IMG/VR virus record: IMGVR_UViG_2737471841_000006
Coordinates: 1 to 21,794 of that record
From: a virus
Taxonomy: Duplodnaviria; Heunggongvirae; Uroviricota; Caudoviricetes
Length of the DNA: 21,794 bases
Direction: 5' to 3' (one strand)
The notes below the pieces were generated by a model, which saw nothing but the letters and a program-made list of their open reading frames with translations, made no database searches and was not told the DNA's origin. Shown one piece after another: positions 6,745-15,417 of this stretch; position 1 is the stretch's first letter; the number at the start of each line of letters is the position of its first letter. Position numbers and translations under genes: made by a program.

Positions 6745-7234
6745 ATGTTGGATGTATTTACTCCATTGTTGAAACTTTTTGCTAAAGAGCCACATCGAAA
6801 GACTTATGTACACGATTATCATTTTTGGCCTCACTCTCTGGCTGATACCGAAAGAGTTTGCTGTCGTATTTAATGCTTATACTGAAATAACCTGGCTCTT
6901 TCAGATTATAGTTTTTGCCTTTTCTTTCGTGGTTGCCATTTCCTTCTCAAGATTGCGAGCACATATTCAAAAACATTATTCATTGCTACCAGAGCAACGA
7001 GTATTGCTTCGTTTATCTGAGAAAGAAATCGCTGTATTTAAAGATTTCCTTAAAACAGGAAATCTTATTATCACTTCTCCTTGCCGTAACCCGGTTATGA
7101 AAAAATTAGAACGGAAGGGCATCATTCAACATCAGAGTGATGGCGCAAACTGTTCTTATTATCTCGTCACCGAAAAATACTCCCACTTTATGAAGTTATT
7201 CTGGAACAGTAGGAGCAGACGTTTTAATCGTTAG
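6745..7234 (+). pseudogene. sieB: Superinfection exclusion protein B (sieB), reading frame broken by an apparent 1-nt insertion near 6792-6796
   Basis: MLDVFTPLLKLFAKEP (frame of ATG 6745) switches frame and continues as ..IERLMYTIIIFGLTLWLIPKEF..SRSRRFNR in the 6779..7234 ORF. 16 + 1 + 145 residues gives 162 aa, the intact SieB length. First in-frame ATG after the shift is at 6806. Confidence 0.6.
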
Positions 7235-7983: not shown

Positions 7984-8391
7984 TTATTGATGTTTGTTAC
8001 GCTTGCGAGCTTCTAATAGCTCAGTAAATAGGCGATTAAAATTCTCAACTCGAGCGCTGAGTTCACTGATTTGTGCTTGTTGTTCGGATTTTGGAAGTGC
8101 GCGATACAGTCGCAACATCTCCAGTTCATCTTCCGATAAGTCTAAGGTGCTATTGAGTGAAACTGGGGCATCCGGAGTTTTATCCTCATCACCGAACAGT
8201 ATCCAGGTCGGTGAGCATTGTAATACCTCGGCGAGTCTATGCAAATTTTGCCCGCGCGGGGCTGTATGGTCACTTTCCCATAATGAAATTGATGAGCCAG
8301 AAACGCCAGCAGCTTTGCTTAAACCACTTTGACTTAAGCCTACCTGCTTGCGTCTTTCTCTAATTCGTTGACCTAAAGTTTTCTCGTTCAT
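7984..8391 (-). CDS. racR: Prophage repressor RacR-like (XRE-family helix-turn-helix), 135 aa from this start
   Basis: ORF MNEKTLGQRIRERRKQVGLSQSGLSKAAGVSGSSISLWESDHTAPRGQNLHRLAEVLQCSPTWILFGDED.. has a typical XRE HTH at the N-terminus. Divergent from the cro-like ydaS and flanked by operator-like repeats. Upstream in-frame ATG at 8442 (152 aa) is an alternative start; neither has a clear Shine-Dalgarno. Confidence 0.75.
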   Translation of the reverse strand: MNEKTLGQRIRERRKQVGLSQSGLSKAAGVSGSSISLWESDHTAPRGQNLHRLAEVLQCSPTWILFGDEDKTPDAPVSLNSTLDLSEDELEMLRLYRALPKSEQQAQISELSARVENFNRLFTELLEARKRNKHQ

Positions 8392-8412
8392 ATTTAGATA
8401 TCTTAATAACCC

Positions 8413-8458
8413 TTGACTTGAGATTCCTTGAGCGATTAACATTGAGAAAACTCAATAT
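8413..8458. promoter_or_regulatory. Right operator/promoter region: PR-like promoter (-35 TTGACT 8413-8418, -10 TAACAT 8437-8442) overlapped by palindrome ATTGAG-AAAA-CTCAAT (8441-8456)
   Basis: TTGAG half-sites at 8418, 8428 and 8442, with inverted CTCAAT at 8451-8456. GGAGG Shine-Dalgarno (8460-8464) and ydaS ATG (8469) follow immediately. Confidence 0.4.
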
Positions 8459-8468
8459 TGGAGGTGCA

Positions 8469-8597
8469 ATGTTTAAATCAGACGTAATTAATTATTACGG
8501 CACGAAAGCCAAAGTGGCGAAAGCTGCTGGCGTTGATCCATCTGCTGTTTCTCAATGGGGGGAAGCCGCAAACGATCGTCGGTTTCAAAATTGGTAA
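8469..8597 (+). pseudogene. ydaS: Cro-like HTH protein stub (YdaS-like), 42 aa; probably truncated at a deletion junction
   Basis: Hand translation gives MFKSDVINYYGTKAKVAKAAGVDPSAVSQWGEAANDRRFQNW then stop; not in the track (<60 aa). Good GGAGG Shine-Dalgarno. Only the HTH portion is present, a G6 run sits at 8557-8562, and a terminase frame takes over immediately. Confidence 0.5.
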
Positions 8598-9543
8598 TGC
8601 GCTGGTGGATGAACTGGACATTTTGCCGAAGGAAAAAGCCAGAACTGCGTGGCGCAAGATAATTGCGCGTATGCGTTATAAGGTTGATGGACTTCGCAAC
8701 GGTATTGACGTTACAACCACGCCAGAAGGATTCAAATTTGTCTACGAGCAGTTTGTTAAAGCCGTGCGTGAAAAAACAGAGTTGTCCTCACTGTATGGTC
8801 TGGTGCAGGCATCTACTTTCGATAATGAAAAGAACCTGCCAGCAGATTACATTCCTTCGCTTCTTGAATCATACCCTCCAGAGCTGATTAAAGCCTATCT
8901 TCGTGGACAGTTTACGAACCTGACAAGTGGTACTGTTTACCATCAGTTTGACCGGCAACTGAATAATTGCGAAGAAGTGGAGCAGCCTGGGGAGCCGATT
9001 TATATCGGGATGGATTTTAACGTTGGAAAGATGGCGGGGATCGTCCATGTGCTGCGTTTGGGTCTTCCATGTGCGGTAACTGAAATCATCAATGCCTACG
9101 ATACGCCGGATATGATCCGTATCATTAAAGAACGCTTCTGGCTGTATGACGGAAATGATTACCGGAAGGTGAGAGAAATTTATATTTATCCTGATGCCTC
9201 CGGGGATTCCCGAAAATCAAATAATGCAAGTGCGACGGATATTGCTCAGCTTAAACAGGCCGGTTTTAACGTTGTGGTGAACAGTTCGAACCCGCCAGTA
9301 AAAGATCGCGTTAACTCAATGAATGCAATGTTCTGCAATGCCAATGGCGAGCGTCGCTATAAAGTTAATGTGAAGCGTTGTCCGGTATATGCCGAATCTC
9401 TGGAGCAACAGGTCTGGGATGATAAGGGGGAGCCTGATAAAAAATCTGGCAACGATCACCCGAATGATGCAGGAGGTTATTTCATCGTTAAACAATTCCC
9501 TATTGTCAAACCGACCGGAAGAGTCACATCACTTCGGATTTAA
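8533..9543 (+). pseudogene. Terminase large subunit, N-terminally truncated fragment (Walker B-like segment plus complete nuclease domain; no Walker A)
   Basis: 336-aa frame with ALVDELD (Walker B-like) and nuclease-domain acidic motifs IYIGMDFNVG, IYPDASGD and GNDHPNDAGGY. No GxxxxGK(S/T) P-loop anywhere. Frame is open from 8488 with only a TTG at 8533. Sits directly after the cro-like stub, where replication and lysis genes would be expected. Confidence 0.6.
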
Positions 9544-9545
9544 TT

Positions 9546-9923
9546 ATGGCTGATATATCAACACCCAACCTCGACTATAACGATATGCTGGAGGCGTGGG
9601 ATATTAACGACGCACTGATGGGCGGTACGCTTGAAATGCGCAGGCAGGGAGAAAATTATCTCCCAAAATGGCCTAACGAAGATGAAGACGCTTATAAAAA
9701 ACGCCTGTCCGTGGCTACGCTACTTCCTGTGTATGAAGAAAGCATTAAGCAAAATATTGGGCGCATATTTGCAGAGCCGACAGTATTGAGTGAGGAAACG
9801 CCGGAAAAAATCAGGGAATATGCAGAAAATATCGACATGGAGGGGAGCCGACTGGATGTGTGGGCGCAGCAATTTTTCAGCCTCGCATTTCAGTATGGTG
9901 TGGCACATGCGCTGGTGGATTAA
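9546..9923 (+). CDS. Hypothetical 125-aa head-module protein; possibly the N-terminal stub of a portal protein
   Basis: ATG overlaps the terL stop (TAATTATG). Position (after terL, before scaffold-like and capsid genes) is where a 500-700 aa portal gene normally lies. No Shine-Dalgarno; followed by a strong intrinsic terminator. Confidence 0.35.
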   Translation: MADISTPNLDYNDMLEAWDINDALMGGTLEMRRQGENYLPKWPNEDEDAYKKRLSVATLLPVYEESIKQNIGRIFAEPTVLSEETPEKIREYAENIDMEGSRLDVWAQQFFSLAFQYGVAHALVD

Positions 9924-10012
9924 AGGCGAATGGTTGACACTGAAGCAACTCCGGGAGCGTGATGCTCAGGCATTCAGAAACGCAGGGATTTAAATAAATC
10001 ATTTATTACAAC

Positions 10013-10039
10013 AGGCTACCTTCGGGTGGCTTTTTTTTT
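10013..10039 (+). terminator. Rho-independent terminator (7-bp stem, UUCG tetraloop, U9 tail)
   Basis: aggctacc-ttcg-ggtggct followed by ttttttttt at 10031-10039. Confidence 0.6.
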
Positions 10040-10051
10040 GCTGCGATCCGG

Positions 10052-10861
10052 ATGGTGAGCAGCGTAACTGTCGGAAGACTTAAACCAGGTACTAATATGA
10101 AACTGAAAACGGTCGAGATTAACGGAAAACAATACGCAGAAATTGATACTGCTGGCCTTCCAGTTTATGTGCACGACGATGGTAAAGAAATCGGCTTCGA
10201 TGCACCGCTGGCGACAAAAAAAATTACAGAGCTTAATGGCGAGGCAAAAAATCATCGTCTGGCTAAAGAAGCTGCAGAGGAAAAACTGGCTAAGTTTGCC
10301 GCTATCGAAGACCCGAAGAAGGCAATCGAGGCACTGGAAATGCTGTCAAAAATCGACCAGAAAAAGCTGATCGATGCGGGACAGGTTGACCAGGTAAAGG
10401 CAGATATTACGAAAAACTTTCAGCAGCAATTAGACGAAGAAAAGCAACGCTCTCAGATGCTGGAGAAGCAGCTTTACGATTCCATGATTGGCGGTAGTTT
10501 TGCGGGGTCAAAATATATTGCCGATAAAATTGCGATCCCGGCAGATTTATTACAAGCCCGCTTCGGACAGGCATTCAAAGTGGAAGAAGGGAAGATAGTT
10601 GCCTATGACGCTTCCGGCAACAAAATTTATTCCCGCTCGAAGCCAGGCGAACTGGCGCAGTTTGATGAGGCGCTGGAGTTCCTCGTCGAAAATTACCCTC
10701 AGAAAGACTATATCCTGAAAGCCAGTGGTAACAATGGCGGCGGCTCTCGTCCGACACAGCATGATATTGGTCAGAAAACGATGAAACGCTCTGCTTTCGA
10801 TGCACTGGATGTTGCAGGTAAGCAAAATGCACTGAAAGACGGTATCACAATCGTTGATTAA
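10052..10861 (+). CDS. Putative capsid scaffolding protein (helical, charged, coiled-coil-like), 269 aa
   Basis: Lies immediately upstream of the major capsid gene. Composition is rich in E/K/A/Q with heptad-like stretches (..LAKEAAEEKLAKFAAIEDPKKAIEALEMLSKIDQKKLIDAGQVDQVKADITKNFQQQLDEEKQRSQMLEKQL..). Alternative start at ATG 10097 (MKLKT..). Confidence 0.45.
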   Translation: MVSSVTVGRLKPGTNMKLKTVEINGKQYAEIDTAGLPVYVHDDGKEIGFDAPLATKKITELNGEAKNHRLAKEAAEEKLAKFAAIEDPKKAIEALEMLSKIDQKKLIDAGQVDQVKADITKNFQQQLDEEKQRSQMLEKQLYDSMIGGSFAGSKYIADKIAIPADLLQARFGQAFKVEEGKIVAYDASGNKIYSRSKPGELAQFDEALEFLVENYPQKDYILKASGNNGGGSRPTQHDIGQKTMKRSAFDALDVAGKQNALKDGITIVD

Positions 10862-10960
10862 TACATTTGCCAGCTTCCGGATGGGAGCTGGTGTCAGGGC
10901 TGGATAGCTCACTACTCAATCCATTGAAAAATTACGCAAATTTTTAAGGAATATTTAATT

Positions 10961-12100
10961 ATGGCTGGAAATACCCTGACCGGGTTGATCCCGACTATTT
11001 ATACCGCCCTGAATGTTGTATCCCGTGAGCAGGTAGGTTTTATCCCTGCTGTAGCAAAAAACGCAAAAGCTGACGCCGCAGCAAAAGATCAGACGGTAAC
11101 CGCGCCAGTTGCACCTGAGGCGAAAACCGAAGATATCGTACCGGGGCCGTCAGCTCCGAATACCGGTGATCAAAATATTGGTACTGTTGATGTAAAAATA
11201 ACTAAATCCAAAATGGCACCGGTTAAATGGAATGGTGAAGAACAACTGGCTCTTGGCCCTTCCGGGACTTACAACACCATTCTGGCTGATCAGTTTAAGC
11301 AGGCTTTTCGCGCCCTTGCAAACGAGGTTGAGGCTGATCTTGGTGCGCTGTATTTCGGTACTTCCCGCGCCGTGGGAACTGCAGGGACAACGCCGTTTGG
11401 TGTTAAAGATGATCTTTCTGATGCTGCTTTGGCTCGCCAGGTTCTGGAGGATAACGGCGCACCGACAACCGATCTGCAGATGGTGCTTGGCTCCACTGCC
11501 ATTGCGAATTTGCGCGGAAAACAGTCTGTATTGTTTAAAGTGAATGAATCCGGCACTGAACAGCTACTGCGTGAGGGCGTGTTAGGGCGTCTGGAGGGAT
11601 TCAATATTCACAGTTCGGCAGGTGTAAAACGAGCGCCGAAGGTTGCTGCAACTGGTTATCTCGTGAATGGCGAGAAAAAAGAAGGCGATGTTCTTATTTC
11701 CATTGATACTGGTTCGGGGAGTATTTCGGCAGGTCAGATTGTTACGTTCGCTGGCGATCCGAATCAGTATGTTGTGGCAGCAGCGACCAGCAATCTGATT
11801 ACTCTTGCTGCGCCTGGACTGCGTCAGGATCTGGCCGATGATACTGTAATCACGGTTGTCGGCTCCTTTACTGCAAATATGGCGTTTGATCGCAACGCAT
11901 TTCTGCTGGCGTCCCGTACCCCGGCAATGCCGGAAGGTGGCGATAATGCTGATGATGTAATGAATGTTACGGACCCGATCTCAGGAATTACGTTCCAGAT
12001 TGCCCTGTATCGTCAGTATCGCCAGGTTCGCTATGAAGTTGGACTGGCATGGGGTGTTTCATCGGTGAAGCCGGCGCATGGTTGTCTGATTCTTGGTTAA
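10961..12100 (+). CDS. Putative major capsid (coat) protein, 379 aa
   Basis: Size and position between the scaffold-like gene and the head-tail connector genes. AAGGA upstream of the ATG. Followed by a hairpin terminator, as is common after highly expressed capsid genes. Confidence 0.6.
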   Translation: MAGNTLTGLIPTIYTALNVVSREQVGFIPAVAKNAKADAAAKDQTVTAPVAPEAKTEDIVPGPSAPNTGDQNIGTVDVKITKSKMAPVKWNGEEQLALGPSGTYNTILADQFKQAFRALANEVEADLGALYFGTSRAVGTAGTTPFGVKDDLSDAALARQVLEDNGAPTTDLQMVLGSTAIANLRGKQSVLFKVNESGTEQLLREGVLGRLEGFNIHSSAGVKRAPKVAATGYLVNGEKKEGDVLISIDTGSGSISAGQIVTFAGDPNQYVVAAATSNLITLAAPGLRQDLADDTVITVVGSFTANMAFDRNAFLLASRTPAMPEGGDNADDVMNVTDPISGITFQIALYRQYRQVRYEVGLAWGVSSVKPAHGCLILG

Positions 12101-12110
12101 ACATCCAAAC

Positions 12111-12131
12111 GGGGCTTCGGCCCCATTTTTT
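12111..12131 (+). terminator. Intrinsic terminator or attenuator after the capsid gene (GGGGC-UUCG-GCCCC then AUUUUUU)
   Basis: ggggcttcggcccc followed by attttttaa, 11 nt after the capsid stop and 13 nt before the next gene's ATG. Confidence 0.5.
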
Positions 12132-12143
12132 AATGGAGGGTAT

Positions 12144-12368
12144 ATGGCTGGATTAACTAAAGAGCAAAGAGCACAGCGTGAAGCCGCGCAAAAAAATGCA
12201 GTGGCGGAGCAGAATGTGGAGCAAATTCAGGATCCTCAAAAAACACAGATTGAGTTGGTGGTTATGATGACCGATCATCAGATGTTTCCCGGCGCACCAA
12301 CTATCGCTAATGTTCATCCTGAAGAAGTTGATAACTGGAAGGCTCTGGGCTGGAAAACTCAGGAGTAA
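12144..12368 (+). CDS. Small head-associated protein, 74 aa
   Basis: ATG 12144 preceded by GGAGGG Shine-Dalgarno (MAGLTKEQRAQREAAQKNAVAEQ..). Track ORF start at 12093 would overlap the capsid gene and terminator. Confidence 0.45.
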   Translation: MAGLTKEQRAQREAAQKNAVAEQNVEQIQDPQKTQIELVVMMTDHQMFPGAPTIANVHPEEVDNWKALGWKTQE

Positions 12369-12371
12369 CAC

Positions 12372-12767
12372 ATGATCACTTATGTGACCTGTGATGACGT
12401 TGATAATGCGCTTGGGAATGCCTGGGCGAGCGAGAACGCTAAAAATAAAGCTGTTTTAATGGCTAATGCCTGGCTTAATGGCTTCAACCTGAAAATTAAC
12501 CCATCCCGTATTCCGGAAGAGATAAAGCTTGCGGGAGCATATGCAGCCAGAAGTGCCTCTCTCGGTAAGTTGTTTCAGCAGAAAAATGATTCTGGCGTTG
12601 TTATCAGTAAAGCCGTGTCGGCTGACGGGATCAGTGTATCGAAATCATTTGCTCAGTTGCCAGCAAATAGTACTGCATTGCTTGAGCCCGATTTACAGCT
12701 TGCAATAGCACTGCTGAAACCGTACGGGCTTAGTCGCTCACAAGTCAGGGTTGTGAGGGGGGGATGA
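12372..12767 (+). CDS. Head-tail connector / adaptor protein (gp6-like), 131 aa
   Basis: AGGAG Shine-Dalgarno 6 nt upstream. Size and position are right for the first neck gene after capsid; N-terminal region looks like phage gp6-type connector proteins. Confidence 0.5.
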   Translation: MITYVTCDDVDNALGNAWASENAKNKAVLMANAWLNGFNLKINPSRIPEEIKLAGAYAARSASLGKLFQQKNDSGVVISKAVSADGISVSKSFAQLPANSTALLEPDLQLAIALLKPYGLSRSQVRVVRGG

Positions 12768-13150
12768 TGGGACTTCGTGAAGAGATTCAGTCAGAGGTTG
12801 CCGCTGCTTTTGATGAAGAGTTAGCGGACGCTGTGAGTGATTTTTCTGGTTCTTATTCTATGTACCGGTACTGGGATCCTGTGACGGAAACTGGTGACGA
12901 ATTCACAACAACCTATACCGGGCGAGGCGTGTTGGCACGTTATAAGCTGAACAGAATTGATGGGATTAATATTTTGCATGGTGACCTTAAATTAACCGTT
13001 CTGGTATGCGAGGTTACGGATAAACCCGCGGTCGGCCATATTATTGAGACTTATGATCCTGTATCAAGGCAGTTGCAACGATACGAGGTAATTACAGCGA
13101 GTGTAGATCCTTCCGCATCAGTTTACTCACTCCAGTTAAGGAGGACGTAA
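12764..13150 (+). CDS. Head closure / head-tail joining protein, 128 aa
   Basis: ATGA start/stop overlap with the upstream gene (translational coupling); neck-module position. Confidence 0.45.
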   Translation: MMGLREEIQSEVAAAFDEELADAVSDFSGSYSMYRYWDPVTETGDEFTTTYTGRGVLARYKLNRIDGINILHGDLKLTVLVCEVTDKPAVGHIIETYDPVSRQLQRYEVITASVDPSASVYSLQLRRT

Positions 13151-13531
13151 ATGGCAAAGGCATGGGATATAGAACCGTCAATATTTGCCGGGATGATTGA
13201 GGAAGATGTGGGACTGAAAATTCGCTACATCGCTATTCAGATTCTTACGGCCATTGATATTGCTGCTCCGGTTGATACCGGGCGTTTCAGAAATAACAAC
13301 CTGGTGTCGTTACAGCATCCCGATTTTGGTATATCTGATAACGTGGATCCGAACGGTACGATTGCGGTTCAGCGTGGGATCGGGGTTATTTCGAAAGCTG
13401 CAAATTACGGAATTATTTATATCCAGAATAACCTTCCTTATGCAGAGGTTCTTGAAAACGGTCATTCACAACAAGCGCCAACTGGCGTGTATGCCAATGC
13501 TTTTCATGGTGTTTTACAGGCTTACAAATGA
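13151..13531 (+). CDS. Neck protein of the HK97 gp10 family (tail completion / head-tail adaptor), 126 aa
   Basis: Contains DTGRFRNNN, resembling the DTGrLRnS signature of the HK97 gp10 family. AAGGAGG Shine-Dalgarno upstream. Confidence 0.5.
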   Translation: MAKAWDIEPSIFAGMIEEDVGLKIRYIAIQILTAIDIAAPVDTGRFRNNNLVSLQHPDFGISDNVDPNGTIAVQRGIGVISKAANYGIIYIQNNLPYAEVLENGHSQQAPTGVYANAFHGVLQAYK

Positions 13532-13920
13532 CGTTTACTGAAATCAGAAATGCTGTCATTTCCAGAATGACGGCACAGACGGTTATTGATGGAAAAGACG
13601 TATTGTATCCGAACGGGCCAACGTTCGATCCTTCCGGTAAGTTAATCTGGGCGCGGTTAAGTAATATCCCCGGTCTGGCCGGAGTTAACGAAATTGGCGC
13701 GGGGCCGGTTGTTTATCGCACGGGGATAATCATTATTCAGTTATTTGTCCCCGCTGGTTCTGGTTCAAAACTCATTACTGAGACGGCCGATACCTTGCGG
13801 GAGCTGTTTGAGTTTCAGGATGATGATCGTCTCAGTTACCAGGCCGTTTCCTCAATAGCTGTTGGCGAAAAGAATGGCTGGTTCCAGCTTAATCTTCAAA
13901 TTCCATATCGCGCACTCTAG
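13528..13920 (+). CDS. Tail terminator / tail completion protein, 130 aa
   Basis: ATGA overlap with the upstream gene; last small gene before the major tail gene. Confidence 0.45.
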   Translation: MTFTEIRNAVISRMTAQTVIDGKDVLYPNGPTFDPSGKLIWARLSNIPGLAGVNEIGAGPVVYRTGIIIIQLFVPAGSGSKLITETADTLRELFEFQDDDRLSYQAVSSIAVGEKNGWFQLNLQIPYRAL

Positions 13921-13946
13921 CGCAATTAATGACATAGGAGGCTCCT

Positions 13947-14909
13947 GTGAGTTCAGGTGCAAAGGTTATCTCGGCATTTATCCGGGAGACAGTTGCAGGC
14001 ACCACGCCAGCAAGTGGTGACTGGAGTTTATTAAAACGCACAAGCTGGGGAGTAAAACCCACCCAGAATAAAGGCGAAAATAATGAGATCGGCGGCTCCC
14101 GGATGGCTCAGGGGGCAACGCCTGGCACTGTGGATGTTGGCGGTGATGTTGGTACCAAATTTCGCTGGGGTCAACATGATGATTTTCTTGCATCCTGTTT
14201 CGGCGCGGAATGGTCAGGCGATTCTCTGACAATGGGAAATGAGCGAATAACATTTTCTCTGGCGACCTATGCGTCCGATGTCGGAATTGCCTCTGTCATC
14301 AGAGGAGCGCAGGTGGGGTCATGGAAAATGCAGATCCCTAACGATGGTGATATTACGGCGACCGTAACCTTTGCCGGGCTGGACTGGGAATCAAAGGCCG
14401 ATGATACGAATTTTATCACAGGCGAACCTGTGGATAGCGCAGGAGAGCTACGTTATTCGTTTAAGGAGGTTTCAGCAGTAAGCCTGAATGGTGTTGCCGG
14501 AGGTAACGGTTTTTGTATCGACAGTTTTGATATTCAGTTCGATAACAAACTCCAGACTCAGCGTTGTATCGGGACTGGCTCGCCTTATGCAGGAGCAAAT
14601 ATTCCTACTACCTTTACACCGTCCGGTACGGTGACGCTTTCATGGTCTAAAGCTGCGTGGGAAATCTGGAGTAAAACACTGACTGGAGAAACAGTTCCGT
14701 TCAGCTTCACGCTTTCGAATGGAGAGGGGGCATACACTTTCAGTTTTCCGAAGGTTCAGGTGTCAGGTGAATGGCCTGACGGTGGTAATACCGACATTAT
14801 CCAGGTTCAACTGAGTATTACCGCAGCAGATGAAGCGCCTACGATAACCAGAAAAAAAGCCTCTCCGGCTGCCGTGATCGCAAAAGCCAGTGCTGAGGCG
14901 ATTAGTTGA
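13947..14909 (+). CDS. Putative major tail (tube) protein, 320 aa, GTG start
   Basis: GTG 13947 preceded by AGGAGG with 5-nt spacing. Lies immediately upstream of the tail assembly chaperone and tape measure genes. Ser/Thr/Gly-rich composition; weak hairpin at 14923-14946 downstream. Confidence 0.55.
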   Translation: MSSGAKVISAFIRETVAGTTPASGDWSLLKRTSWGVKPTQNKGENNEIGGSRMAQGATPGTVDVGGDVGTKFRWGQHDDFLASCFGAEWSGDSLTMGNERITFSLATYASDVGIASVIRGAQVGSWKMQIPNDGDITATVTFAGLDWESKADDTNFITGEPVDSAGELRYSFKEVSAVSLNGVAGGNGFCIDSFDIQFDNKLQTQRCIGTGSPYAGANIPTTFTPSGTVTLSWSKAAWEIWSKTLTGETVPFSFTLSNGEGAYTFSFPKVQVSGEWPDGGNTDIIQVQLSITAADEAPTITRKKASPAAVIAKASAEAIS

Positions 14910-14955
14910 TTTTCCGTTATTTCCCCTGTGGTGTTGCACTACAGGGACGTTTTGA

Positions 14956-15417
14956 ATGAGGTTATGGATGTTTATTCTTAATCAGAAAATTATCATCGGT
15001 GGAGAACGCTGGTTTACGCCAATGAAGGACTTAAAACCTGTAGATGGGTTAAAACTGTTGGTGGCAAGCAGCGATAACGATCAGTATCGCTCCCGTAATG
15101 CATTAATCCGTCGTCACATAGAGAAAATGGATGCCAGTTTGCATGTCGGAACGAAAGAATTTGATATTGCAAAGGTCGACGAGGTGGATTCTGTTGATGA
15201 TTTACTTATTGATAACGCCGCTCGTTATTTACTGAAAGACTGGAAAGGGGTTGGTGAACTGGTGGATGGGGTTGAGGTCGCGCTGGAATATACACCAGAG
15301 CGAGGGGCCACGCTGCTCAAGCAGAATCCAGAGTTGTACTGGCAAATTCTTGCTGAAGCCGCCAGCATCGCCCAGGGAAAAGAGCAGCAGAAGCAGGATA
15401 CGATAAAAAAGCCATAG
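14956..15417 (+). CDS. Tail assembly chaperone (lambda gpG analogue), zero-frame product, 153 aa
   Basis: Gene directly upstream of the tape measure module, ending 6 nt after a canonical slippery heptamer. AGGGA 8 nt upstream of the ATG. Alternative starts at 14968 or 15022. Confidence 0.6.
   Translation: MRLWMFILNQKIIIGGERWFTPMKDLKPVDGLKLLVASSDNDQYRSRNALIRRHIEKMDASLHVGTKEFDIAKVDEVDSVDDLLIDNAARYLLKDWKGVGELVDGVEVALEYTPERGATLLKQNPELYWQILAEAASIAQGKEQQKQDTIKKP

Follow-up and report, generated by a model that had tools for sequence, protein, structure and literature searches.

The portal gene remnant and its intact relatives

In two intact relatives, the prophage of the enterotoxigenic Escherichia coli (ETEC) strain E21845/O/A (GenBank:NZ_CP076272; L001) and Escherichia phage vB_EcoS-666R9 (GenBank:ON470614; L002), the packaging and head genes are arranged in the order terS, terL (433 aa), a DUF4055 portal gene (468 aa; WP_032218064.1 and URC10149.1, respectively), a minor head gene (370 aa) and a DUF6651 gene. 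The intact 468-aa protein matches the PHROG portal profile phrog_145 from end to end (E = 1.7e-163) and solved portal structures over residues 49–456 (E = 1e-17), and the 370-aa minor head protein is of the Phage_Mu_F/head morphogenesis type (phrog_241; coding sequence at 11378–12490 in L001). The corresponding locus was analysed here in a stretch of 21,794 nt (the window, i.e. the whole stretch of DNA; IMG/VR record IMGVR_UViG_2737471841_000006), a Rac-like lambdoid prophage with intR, recT/recE, sieB and a cI-type repressor gene followed by head and tail genes; contig JUDJ01000023.1 (assembly GCA_000798295.1; L004) matches it with 100% identity. Between its terL and its scaffold-like gene, the window has an open reading frame (ORF) of only 125 codons. 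Sequence comparison indicates that this ORF is almost certainly a portal remnant produced by an internal deletion, a pseudogene without a job, and its annotation as a hypothetical protein is here corrected to portal pseudogene.

The ORF runs from an ATG at 9546 to a TAA at 9921–9923 and starts 2 nt past the terL stop codon, the same spacing as in the intact genes. Its placement directly 3′ of terL matches the order in L001, L002 and a further relative (L015), in which the portal gene is followed by the Mu-F-like gene. Profile search of the 125-aa product revealed a portal N-terminus (phrog_145, E = 1.4e-44, profile positions 7–130 of 493 only), and the product was identical to residues 1–125 of the 468-aa portal of L001, an intact prophage to which the terL-stub segment is 99.9% identical (96.8% to L002). 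No Pfam match was obtained for the 125-aa sequence, because DUF4055, the sole Pfam domain of the portal, corresponds to aa 249–386 of the intact protein. PGAP labels an equivalent stub as "DUF4055 ... incomplete, missing C-terminus", and the protein cluster containing the stub has a 468-aa representative. To form the dodecameric ring, members of this family require a full length of about 470 aa with the DUF4055 core, and the stub has 125 aa; by its predicted product it is a gene fragment and not a member of the portal family in the functional sense.

Alignment by blastn showed that window 8559–9922 corresponds to L001 9001–10364 (99.9%) and window 9921–16867 to L001 12418–19364 (99.8%), the DNA missing from the window being L001 10365–12419, or 2,055 bp. 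At the break (marked ^), the intact portal gene reads ...GCTGGTGGATTA^TCCACG and the intact minor head gene ...CACCGATA^AAGGCG (in a longer reading, ...CACCGATA^AAGGCGAATGG), while the window reads ...GCTGGTGGATTAAAGGCG across the junction (longer, ...GCTGGTGGATTAAAGGCGAATGG). Portal codon 126 was thereby changed from TAT to TAA with zero foreign residues added, and portal codons 126–468 were lost together with the minor head gene except its final 71 nt, all in a single deletion; in the intact E. coli prophage from which the window derives, the major capsid gene came next after the scaffold gene. The portal region is uninterrupted in 741 of the 752 complete E. coli genomes carrying it; therefore, the stub represents the derived state.

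These results bear on an earlier sequence-only reading of the window, which had pointed out the 125-aa ORF, an AT palindrome and a terminator-like hairpin, all present in the sequence, and had suspected that an internal deletion left only a portal stub in a slot too small for a portal gene. The profile match and the identity to residues 1–125 of the L001 portal bear out this suspicion, the intact relatives carry 2,055 bp more in that slot, and they have their portal gene at this very position, the opposite of a free-standing 125-aa gene with the portal encoded elsewhere. As to the extent of the loss, about 1.5 kb had been thought missing at 9924–10012; DNA is indeed missing, but the size is 2,055 bp and the break, at 9921/9923, falls within the ORF's stop codon. 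Likewise, the remainder of the portal gene is gone as supposed, but the Mu-F-like minor head gene, which had not been counted, is also nearly all lost.

Recurrence of the portal breakpoint

The exact 125-aa product occurs in many assemblies and in differing contexts (133 and 121 index blocks for its two alleles). Look-up of this product, by which only ends at TA followed by A or G are detectable, yielded two further deletions, types B and D, in addition to the 2-kb portal/minor head joint of the window (type A). Type B places the stub directly against sitB, which lies on the other strand, with sitA, uspF, ompN and ydbK beyond it. The loss exceeds 20 kb; it begins at portal codon 126 and takes in the tail genes, sitD, sitC and the sitB 3′ part. 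The junction reads ...GGTGGACTA^GCGGCC (longer, ...GCTGGTGGACTA^GCGGCCCATC) and the intact sitB ...GTGCCCATA^GCGGCCCATC, with TA as the microhomology. In type D, found with the second 125-aa allele (P0185), a prophage remnant lies beside ybhB-bioA and a side tail fibre gene forms the right-hand partner of the stub; the junction reads ...GGTGGACTA^ACGGGAAA (longer, ...GCTGGTGGACTA^ACGGGAAATACACC) and the closest intact homologue ...CTGGCTA^GCGGGAAATACACC, giving a CTA microhomology as judged against a 93.6% homologue. The joints thus have the properties of end joining, sharing TA (A and B) or CTA (D) with no insertion sequence (IS) left. Extended homology was ruled out as the cause of the recurrence, since by eye only 10 of 20 positions agreed at junction A and the agreement at junction B was at chance level.

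Over the 1,670-nt left flank (terL plus stub), type A had 0 differences from L001, type D had 0 differences from L002/L015, and type B had 15 and 47 differences. The left-flank alleles are distinct; therefore, A, B and D are independent deletions. A fourth deletion, type C (L014, 1383–1432; one Logan assembly), was found by similarity search, independently of where the deletion ends. Its break lies 8 nt upstream, inside a Chi octamer (GCTG^GTGG; GCGCTG^). Next comes a 25-nt filler copied from portal nt ~1119–1143, after which the sequence continues in the head-tail genes; each of the two joints has a 2-nt overlap. The pattern suggests template switching after priming by a 3′ end.

Other rearrangements of the portal gene included IS1 insertions in the stub region at codons ~42 and ~89 (P0016 and P0048), fusions at codons 47, 58 and 138 and in the C-terminal part, and many frameshifts. 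Of about seven rearrangement ends in the first ~215 portal codons, four fell within 9 nt. Taken together, the shared breakpoint is very probably a real hot spot used in at least three prophage lineages. The individual products are rare among complete RefSeq E. coli genomes: junction A was found in none of them and junction B in one of 5,426, while the right-hand flank of D was matched by at most five, of which one proved to be type D. Searches of the GTDB species representatives and the JGI metagenomes with the junction-A 30-mer and with a degenerate pattern of the junction gave no match, and IMG/VR yielded only a type-B locus and a diverged intact portal. One seemingly similar stub of a diverged lineage (P0014, 133 aa), apparently broken two codons further on, proved to be a 1-nt frameshift with no junction.

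Several observations were made alongside. The sitABCD iron/manganese transporter operon adjoins the right end of the Rac-like prophage in many strains (L003 10375–11606; L013 17779–21228), and deletion B leaves only ~105 codons of sitB and nothing of sitC or sitD, a host transporter being destroyed along with prophage decay. In one E. coli assembly, a 1262-aa product (P0192) has most of the portal fused in-frame to a gpJ-like tail tip protein, representing a large head-to-tail deletion. In L001, the counterpart of window 9913–9922 (L001 10355–10367) has the junction at the centre of a 13-nt palindrome, GTGGAT-T-ATCCAC, which is complete in the L001 allele and 5/6 in the L002 allele and contains TTATCCACg, an 8/9 match to the DnaA box consensus. 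A second recurrent breakpoint was located in terS (L002 4987/4988; L016 4000–4002; L003 8001–8007), where two different deletions of the DNA upstream of terS end at cgaCTA^GCCGGTTATGAGG; they start at L002 2727 and L002 3577, with CTA as the microhomology in one and TA (or an imperfect TAGCCGG) in the other, and no Chi was present within 100 nt of this breakpoint.

The Chi site and possible causes of the recurrence

Purified RecBCD cuts 4–6 nt 3′ of GCTGGTGG, most often 3′ of nt 4, 5 and 6; it does so only when unwinding from the right and in 10–40% of passages, and A at nt 4–7 past Chi favours cutting (PMC5041463). End joining in E. coli is RecBCD-dependent, does not need RecA and uses microhomology of 1–3 (up to 9) nt (bioRxiv 10.1101/605246; see also PMC3375238). 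In the window, Chi was found on the plus strand only, at 8601 in terL and at 9911 in the stub, with none on the minus strand. The site in the stub is oriented for RecBCD arriving from the right, i.e. from the deleted side, and the shared TA constitutes nt 3–4 on the 3′ side of the octamer. Junctions A, B and D keep at most nt 1–4 past Chi (A-Y-T-A), which is compatible with nicking after nt 4; at the other Chi sites nearby, no junctions were seen.

Both Chi sites of the window lie within a 14-nt direct repeat, ATGCGCTGGTGGAT, at 8597–8610 (terL) and 9907–9920 (stub), which reflects the peptide ALVD in both proteins and is conserved in diverged homologues of both. At window 9911–9926, the context is AAAG, one of the four with the highest Chi activity (PMC5041463). 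It was also noticed that contigs of several unrelated assemblies end in or just past the portal Chi (L024–L027, ...GCGCTG, ...GCGCTGG and ...GCGCTGGT), that contig L030 ends, at 6843, at the nt 834 Chi plus 2 nt and that a 146-aa partial product (P0197) ends at the nt 427 Chi plus 4 nt; such Chi-proximal contig ends are probably assembly-graph branch points between co-resident related prophages.

By combining these known steps, a mechanism can be put forward in which a double-strand break to the right of the stub would be resected by RecBCD, which would recognise Chi at 9911–9918 and nick 3′ of the fourth nucleotide past the octamer. The nick would leave ...GCTGGTGGATTA-3′, i.e. ...GCTGGTGGA(T/C)TA-3′, the most that A, B and D retain of the portal sequence; the terminal TA would then anneal to another TA and the ends would be ligated, as in RecBCD-dependent alternative end joining. 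A Chi nick at a fixed position would explain why three independent deletions have an identical left end. We propose only tentatively that Chi and RecBCD are the cause of the hot spot, and natural prophage deletions may perhaps preserve, at nucleotide resolution, a DNA end made by RecBCD at Chi in vivo. If so, Chi-cut 3′ ends would sometimes escape RecA-mediated repair and be joined via microhomology, the left or right edges of genome deletions and of decaying prophages could be predicted from Chi sites, and the genomes already sequenced would contain a record of the 3′ ends produced by RecBCD in living cells. No paper connecting Chi cut sites with deletion junctions in nature was found by literature search, and the searchable literature yielded nothing on nucleotide-precise recurrence of a breakpoint beside Chi, which is apparently new, at least to us.

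A number of observations weigh against the Chi step, though not against the stub being a deletion remnant. The deleted DNA of L001 contains three more plus-strand Chi sites (L001 10414, 10821 and 11512), and that of the L002/L015 type one more (portal nt 834), all of which RecBCD would meet first. The 3′ flank, A-T/C-T-A-T-C-C, has A at nt 4, but the T, C and C at nt 5–7 are disfavoured (PMC5041463). No truncated TerL product diverging at the terL Chi (8601–8608) was found, a weakly informative result as 90% clustering hides stubs behind full-length representatives, and the 125-aa stubs predicted for ten diverged portal alleles were absent from the collection. Candidates for the 281-aa stub predicted at the nt 834 Chi turned out to be a TAC-to-TAA point mutant (L031) and a contig end (L030). 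Other deletion junctions at these loci have no Chi nearby, as is also the case for the recurrent terS breakpoint. In addition, the exact-product look-up behind B and D biases towards identical ends, and the palindrome and the DnaA-box match mean that Chi is not the sole special feature of the intact site.

It is somewhat unlikely, in our judgement, that the hot spot is real with Chi a mere bystander, some other site-specific process breaking GGA(T/C)TA^TCCAC, such as cleavage or stalling at the palindrome, illegitimate recombination mediated by gyrase at a strong gyrase or topoisomerase cleavage site, or cutting by an endonuclease of phage or host origin, terminase included. Such a process would agree with the palindrome, since a cut 5′ of the bottom-strand hairpin loop maps exactly to the junction, with the disuse of other Chi sites nearer the presumed break, and with the terS breakpoint (cgaCTA^GCCGG, two deletions), where TA-type breaks recur without Chi. 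However, only event A arose on an allele with the perfect palindrome, the sequence for B and D being GTGGAC-T-ATCCAC, and a pac site within a portal gene would be unusual. To our knowledge, a 5–6-bp stem is far too weak for the known hairpin nucleases, and we know of no sequence-specific nuclease for the breakpoint site. Moreover, none of these candidates predicts the 4-nt offset from Chi, which fits the published RecBCD cuts (PMC5041463). Should Chi not be responsible, there is an unexplained fragile site, precise to the nucleotide, in a prophage gene that is common in E. coli.

Insertion of an IS at the TA once in each lineage, followed by an IS-driven adjacent deletion or IS-IS recombination and then by precise excision (e.g. 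IEE-assisted) that would leave a clean TA joint with differing right ends, is improbable. Every junction does join TA to TA, IS1 insertions are seen elsewhere in the stub region (P0016, P0048), and excision of the IEE type, accompanied by adjacent deletions, has been documented for E. coli (PMC9943667); on the other hand, this course requires one insertion site in three alleles with clean loss of the IS each time, and no IS-bearing intermediate at the site was found among the truncated products. The parental sites (TTAT/CTAT, ATAA, ATAG) also differ, as far as we know, from the CTAG/YTAR targets of the TA-duplicating IS families.

That there is no hot spot and that the three deletions, found via the exact 125-aa look-up, share a nucleotide by chance is very improbable. 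The restriction of that look-up to ends at TA then A or G and the very many E. coli assemblies in the collection do favour coincidence; against it stand two further exact coincidences within a 1,407-nt gene, with event C, from the search independent of the end point, only 8 nt off, and the clustering of four of about seven end points within 9 nt in the first ~215 codons. Finally, the ORF can hardly be a functional small protein, either a complete gene, as the sequence-only reading had allowed, or a selected fragment (e.g. dominant-negative against incoming related phages): its product is identical in many assemblies (the 133 and 121 blocks of the two alleles), but it comprises codons 1–125 of a longer gene and has no DUF4055 core, its nucleotides are identical to those of intact alleles, so that conservation reflects recency and not selection, selection could not fix an end point to the nucleotide, and the complete-gene version is refuted, since all homologues equal to the stub in length are deletion products (types A, B and D) whose stop codon was made by the junction.

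Neighbouring features and order of decay

The features of the locus are listed in the table.

Table. Features in and around the portal remnant, in window coordinates (^, deletion joint)
Feature	Position	Strand	Description
terL′ (3′ two thirds of the large terminase gene)	8559..9543	+	Terminase_6N from profile position 87 only; Terminase_6C
Portal gene stub	9546..9923	+	Codons 1–125 of a 468-codon DUF4055-type portal gene plus a junction-assembled TAA (GAT TA^A); pseudogene
Chi octamer	9911..9918	+	5′-GCTGGTGG-3′; in the stub, codons A-L-V-D; pattern search
Deletion junction	9921..9922	none	TA dinucleotide common to both parents (2-nt microhomology)
Minor head gene tail	9923..9993	+	Last 71 nt, i.e. 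22 codons plus stop TAA at 9991–9993; out of frame with the stub
AT palindrome	9993..10007	none	AATAAAT-C-ATTTATT; overlaps the minor head stop codon; native
Rho-independent-terminator-like hairpin and T9	10013..10039	+	8-bp stem, TTCG loop; intergenic, minor head/scaffold
DUF6651/scaffold-like gene	10097..10861	+	Pfam DUF6651, E = 2.6e-61; phrog_206 head scaffolding

The hairpin at 10013–10032, with arms AGGCTACC and GGTGGCTT, begins 20 nt past the minor head stop codon and is followed by nine T at 10031–10039. Folding of the RNA of 9985–10045 (61 nt) gave −12.5 kcal/mol (z = −2.2 versus shuffles), and a terminator pattern scan was not significant, with 8 sites in 8000–12500 versus 4.5 ± 2.1 expected. 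The AT palindrome is invariant in L001, L002 and L015, and the hairpin with its T run is identical in L001; over the stretch from the palindrome to the T run, the only differences of L002 and L015 from the window are a T-to-C change at the end of the stem and an extra A within the T run. The palindrome and the terminator are conserved in intact relatives and are therefore the phage's own, unrelated to the deletion; what had been taken for a strong terminator within the head module belongs, as a predicted terminator, to the normal make-up of the intact phage. The relatives appear to encode a DUF1133/antitermination-Q-like protein, and in the intact phage the terminator is presumably read through via Q-type late antitermination.

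By profile, the neighbours of the stub are a terL without its N-terminus, the DUF6651/scaffold-like gene, a P22-type major capsid gene and a head-tail adaptor gene. The longest ORF of the scaffold gene starts at 10052, but its phrog_784 match begins at residue 16 and PGAP calls a 765-nt coding sequence in L001; the true start is likely the ATG at 10097, giving 254 aa. The terL′ gene lacks the first ~105 codons and with them the Walker A motif GSGKT (GFGSGKT in the intact 433-aa TerL).

A separate, larger deletion was observed at window 8469–8610, where a cro/YdaS-like gene (ATG at 8469, first ~30 codons) is joined to terL at codon ~106. This joint (8558/8559) has a 6-nt overlap, GGGGAA, relative to L007, and the deletion removed the Walker A motif and all of the replication, lysis and terS region. 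Two relatives, L007 and L008, carry junction A with terS and terL intact, while the window and L004 have the cro-to-terL deletion in addition; therefore, the portal deletion is the older event. A third joint was located at window 19736–20033, where gpM (97 aa here) is joined near 20013–20017 to the interior of the tail tip gene gpJ, with ~3.7 kb (gpL, gpK, gpI and the 5′ part of gpJ) missing compared with L013 and no Chi nearby. Further losses affect the 5′ end of terL, the early-right and lysis regions and some tail genes. Lacking a portal, the prophage can neither assemble heads nor fill them, and the portal deletion itself is an ordinary decay step in a defective E. coli prophage, a routine kind of feature.

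In the ETEC E21845/O/A relative, toxin cargo was noticed upstream of the packaging genes (L001 20–4225), including a subtilase-family AB5 toxin (binding subunit and catalytic EplA) and an enterotoxin A family pair after the lysis genes.

Compared with intact DUF4055-type portal loci (WP_032218064.1; URC10149.1), the window has identical (L001) or nearly identical first 125 codons and the same flanking terL, scaffold and capsid genes and intergenic terminator, but lacks codons 126–468, which include the DUF4055 core (aa 249–386), and the Mu-F-like neighbour. Similar to Rac of E. coli K-12 and other "grounded" prophages (PMC6379469, PMC2669165), it is integrated beside ttcA with intR, recET, sieB and a cI-type repressor gene, and like cryptic prophages it has suffered several independent internal deletions, with lysis, replication, packaging and tail functions gone. 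Rac of K-12 has lost the whole head module, whereas the window keeps the scaffold, capsid, head-tail and tail tube genes and the portal stub.

With regard to the joints, RecBCD-dependent alternative end joining (Chayot et al. 2010, via bioRxiv 10.1101/605246) produces deletions of kilobases to tens of kilobases with microhomology of 1–3 nt, as here. Those are laboratory events after an induced break, with no fixed Chi end point reported in the text consulted, whereas the present deletions are natural and their dependence on RecBCD is presumed. In relation to Chi nicking as studied by Taylor, Amundsen and Smith (2016; PMC5041463), the orientation of the octamer, a nick 3′ of nt 4 and the A at nt 4 agree with the present site; however, Chi nicking normally leads to RecA loading and homologous repair and not to deletion, the flank at nt 5–7 is unfavoured here, and neighbouring Chi sites are without junctions.

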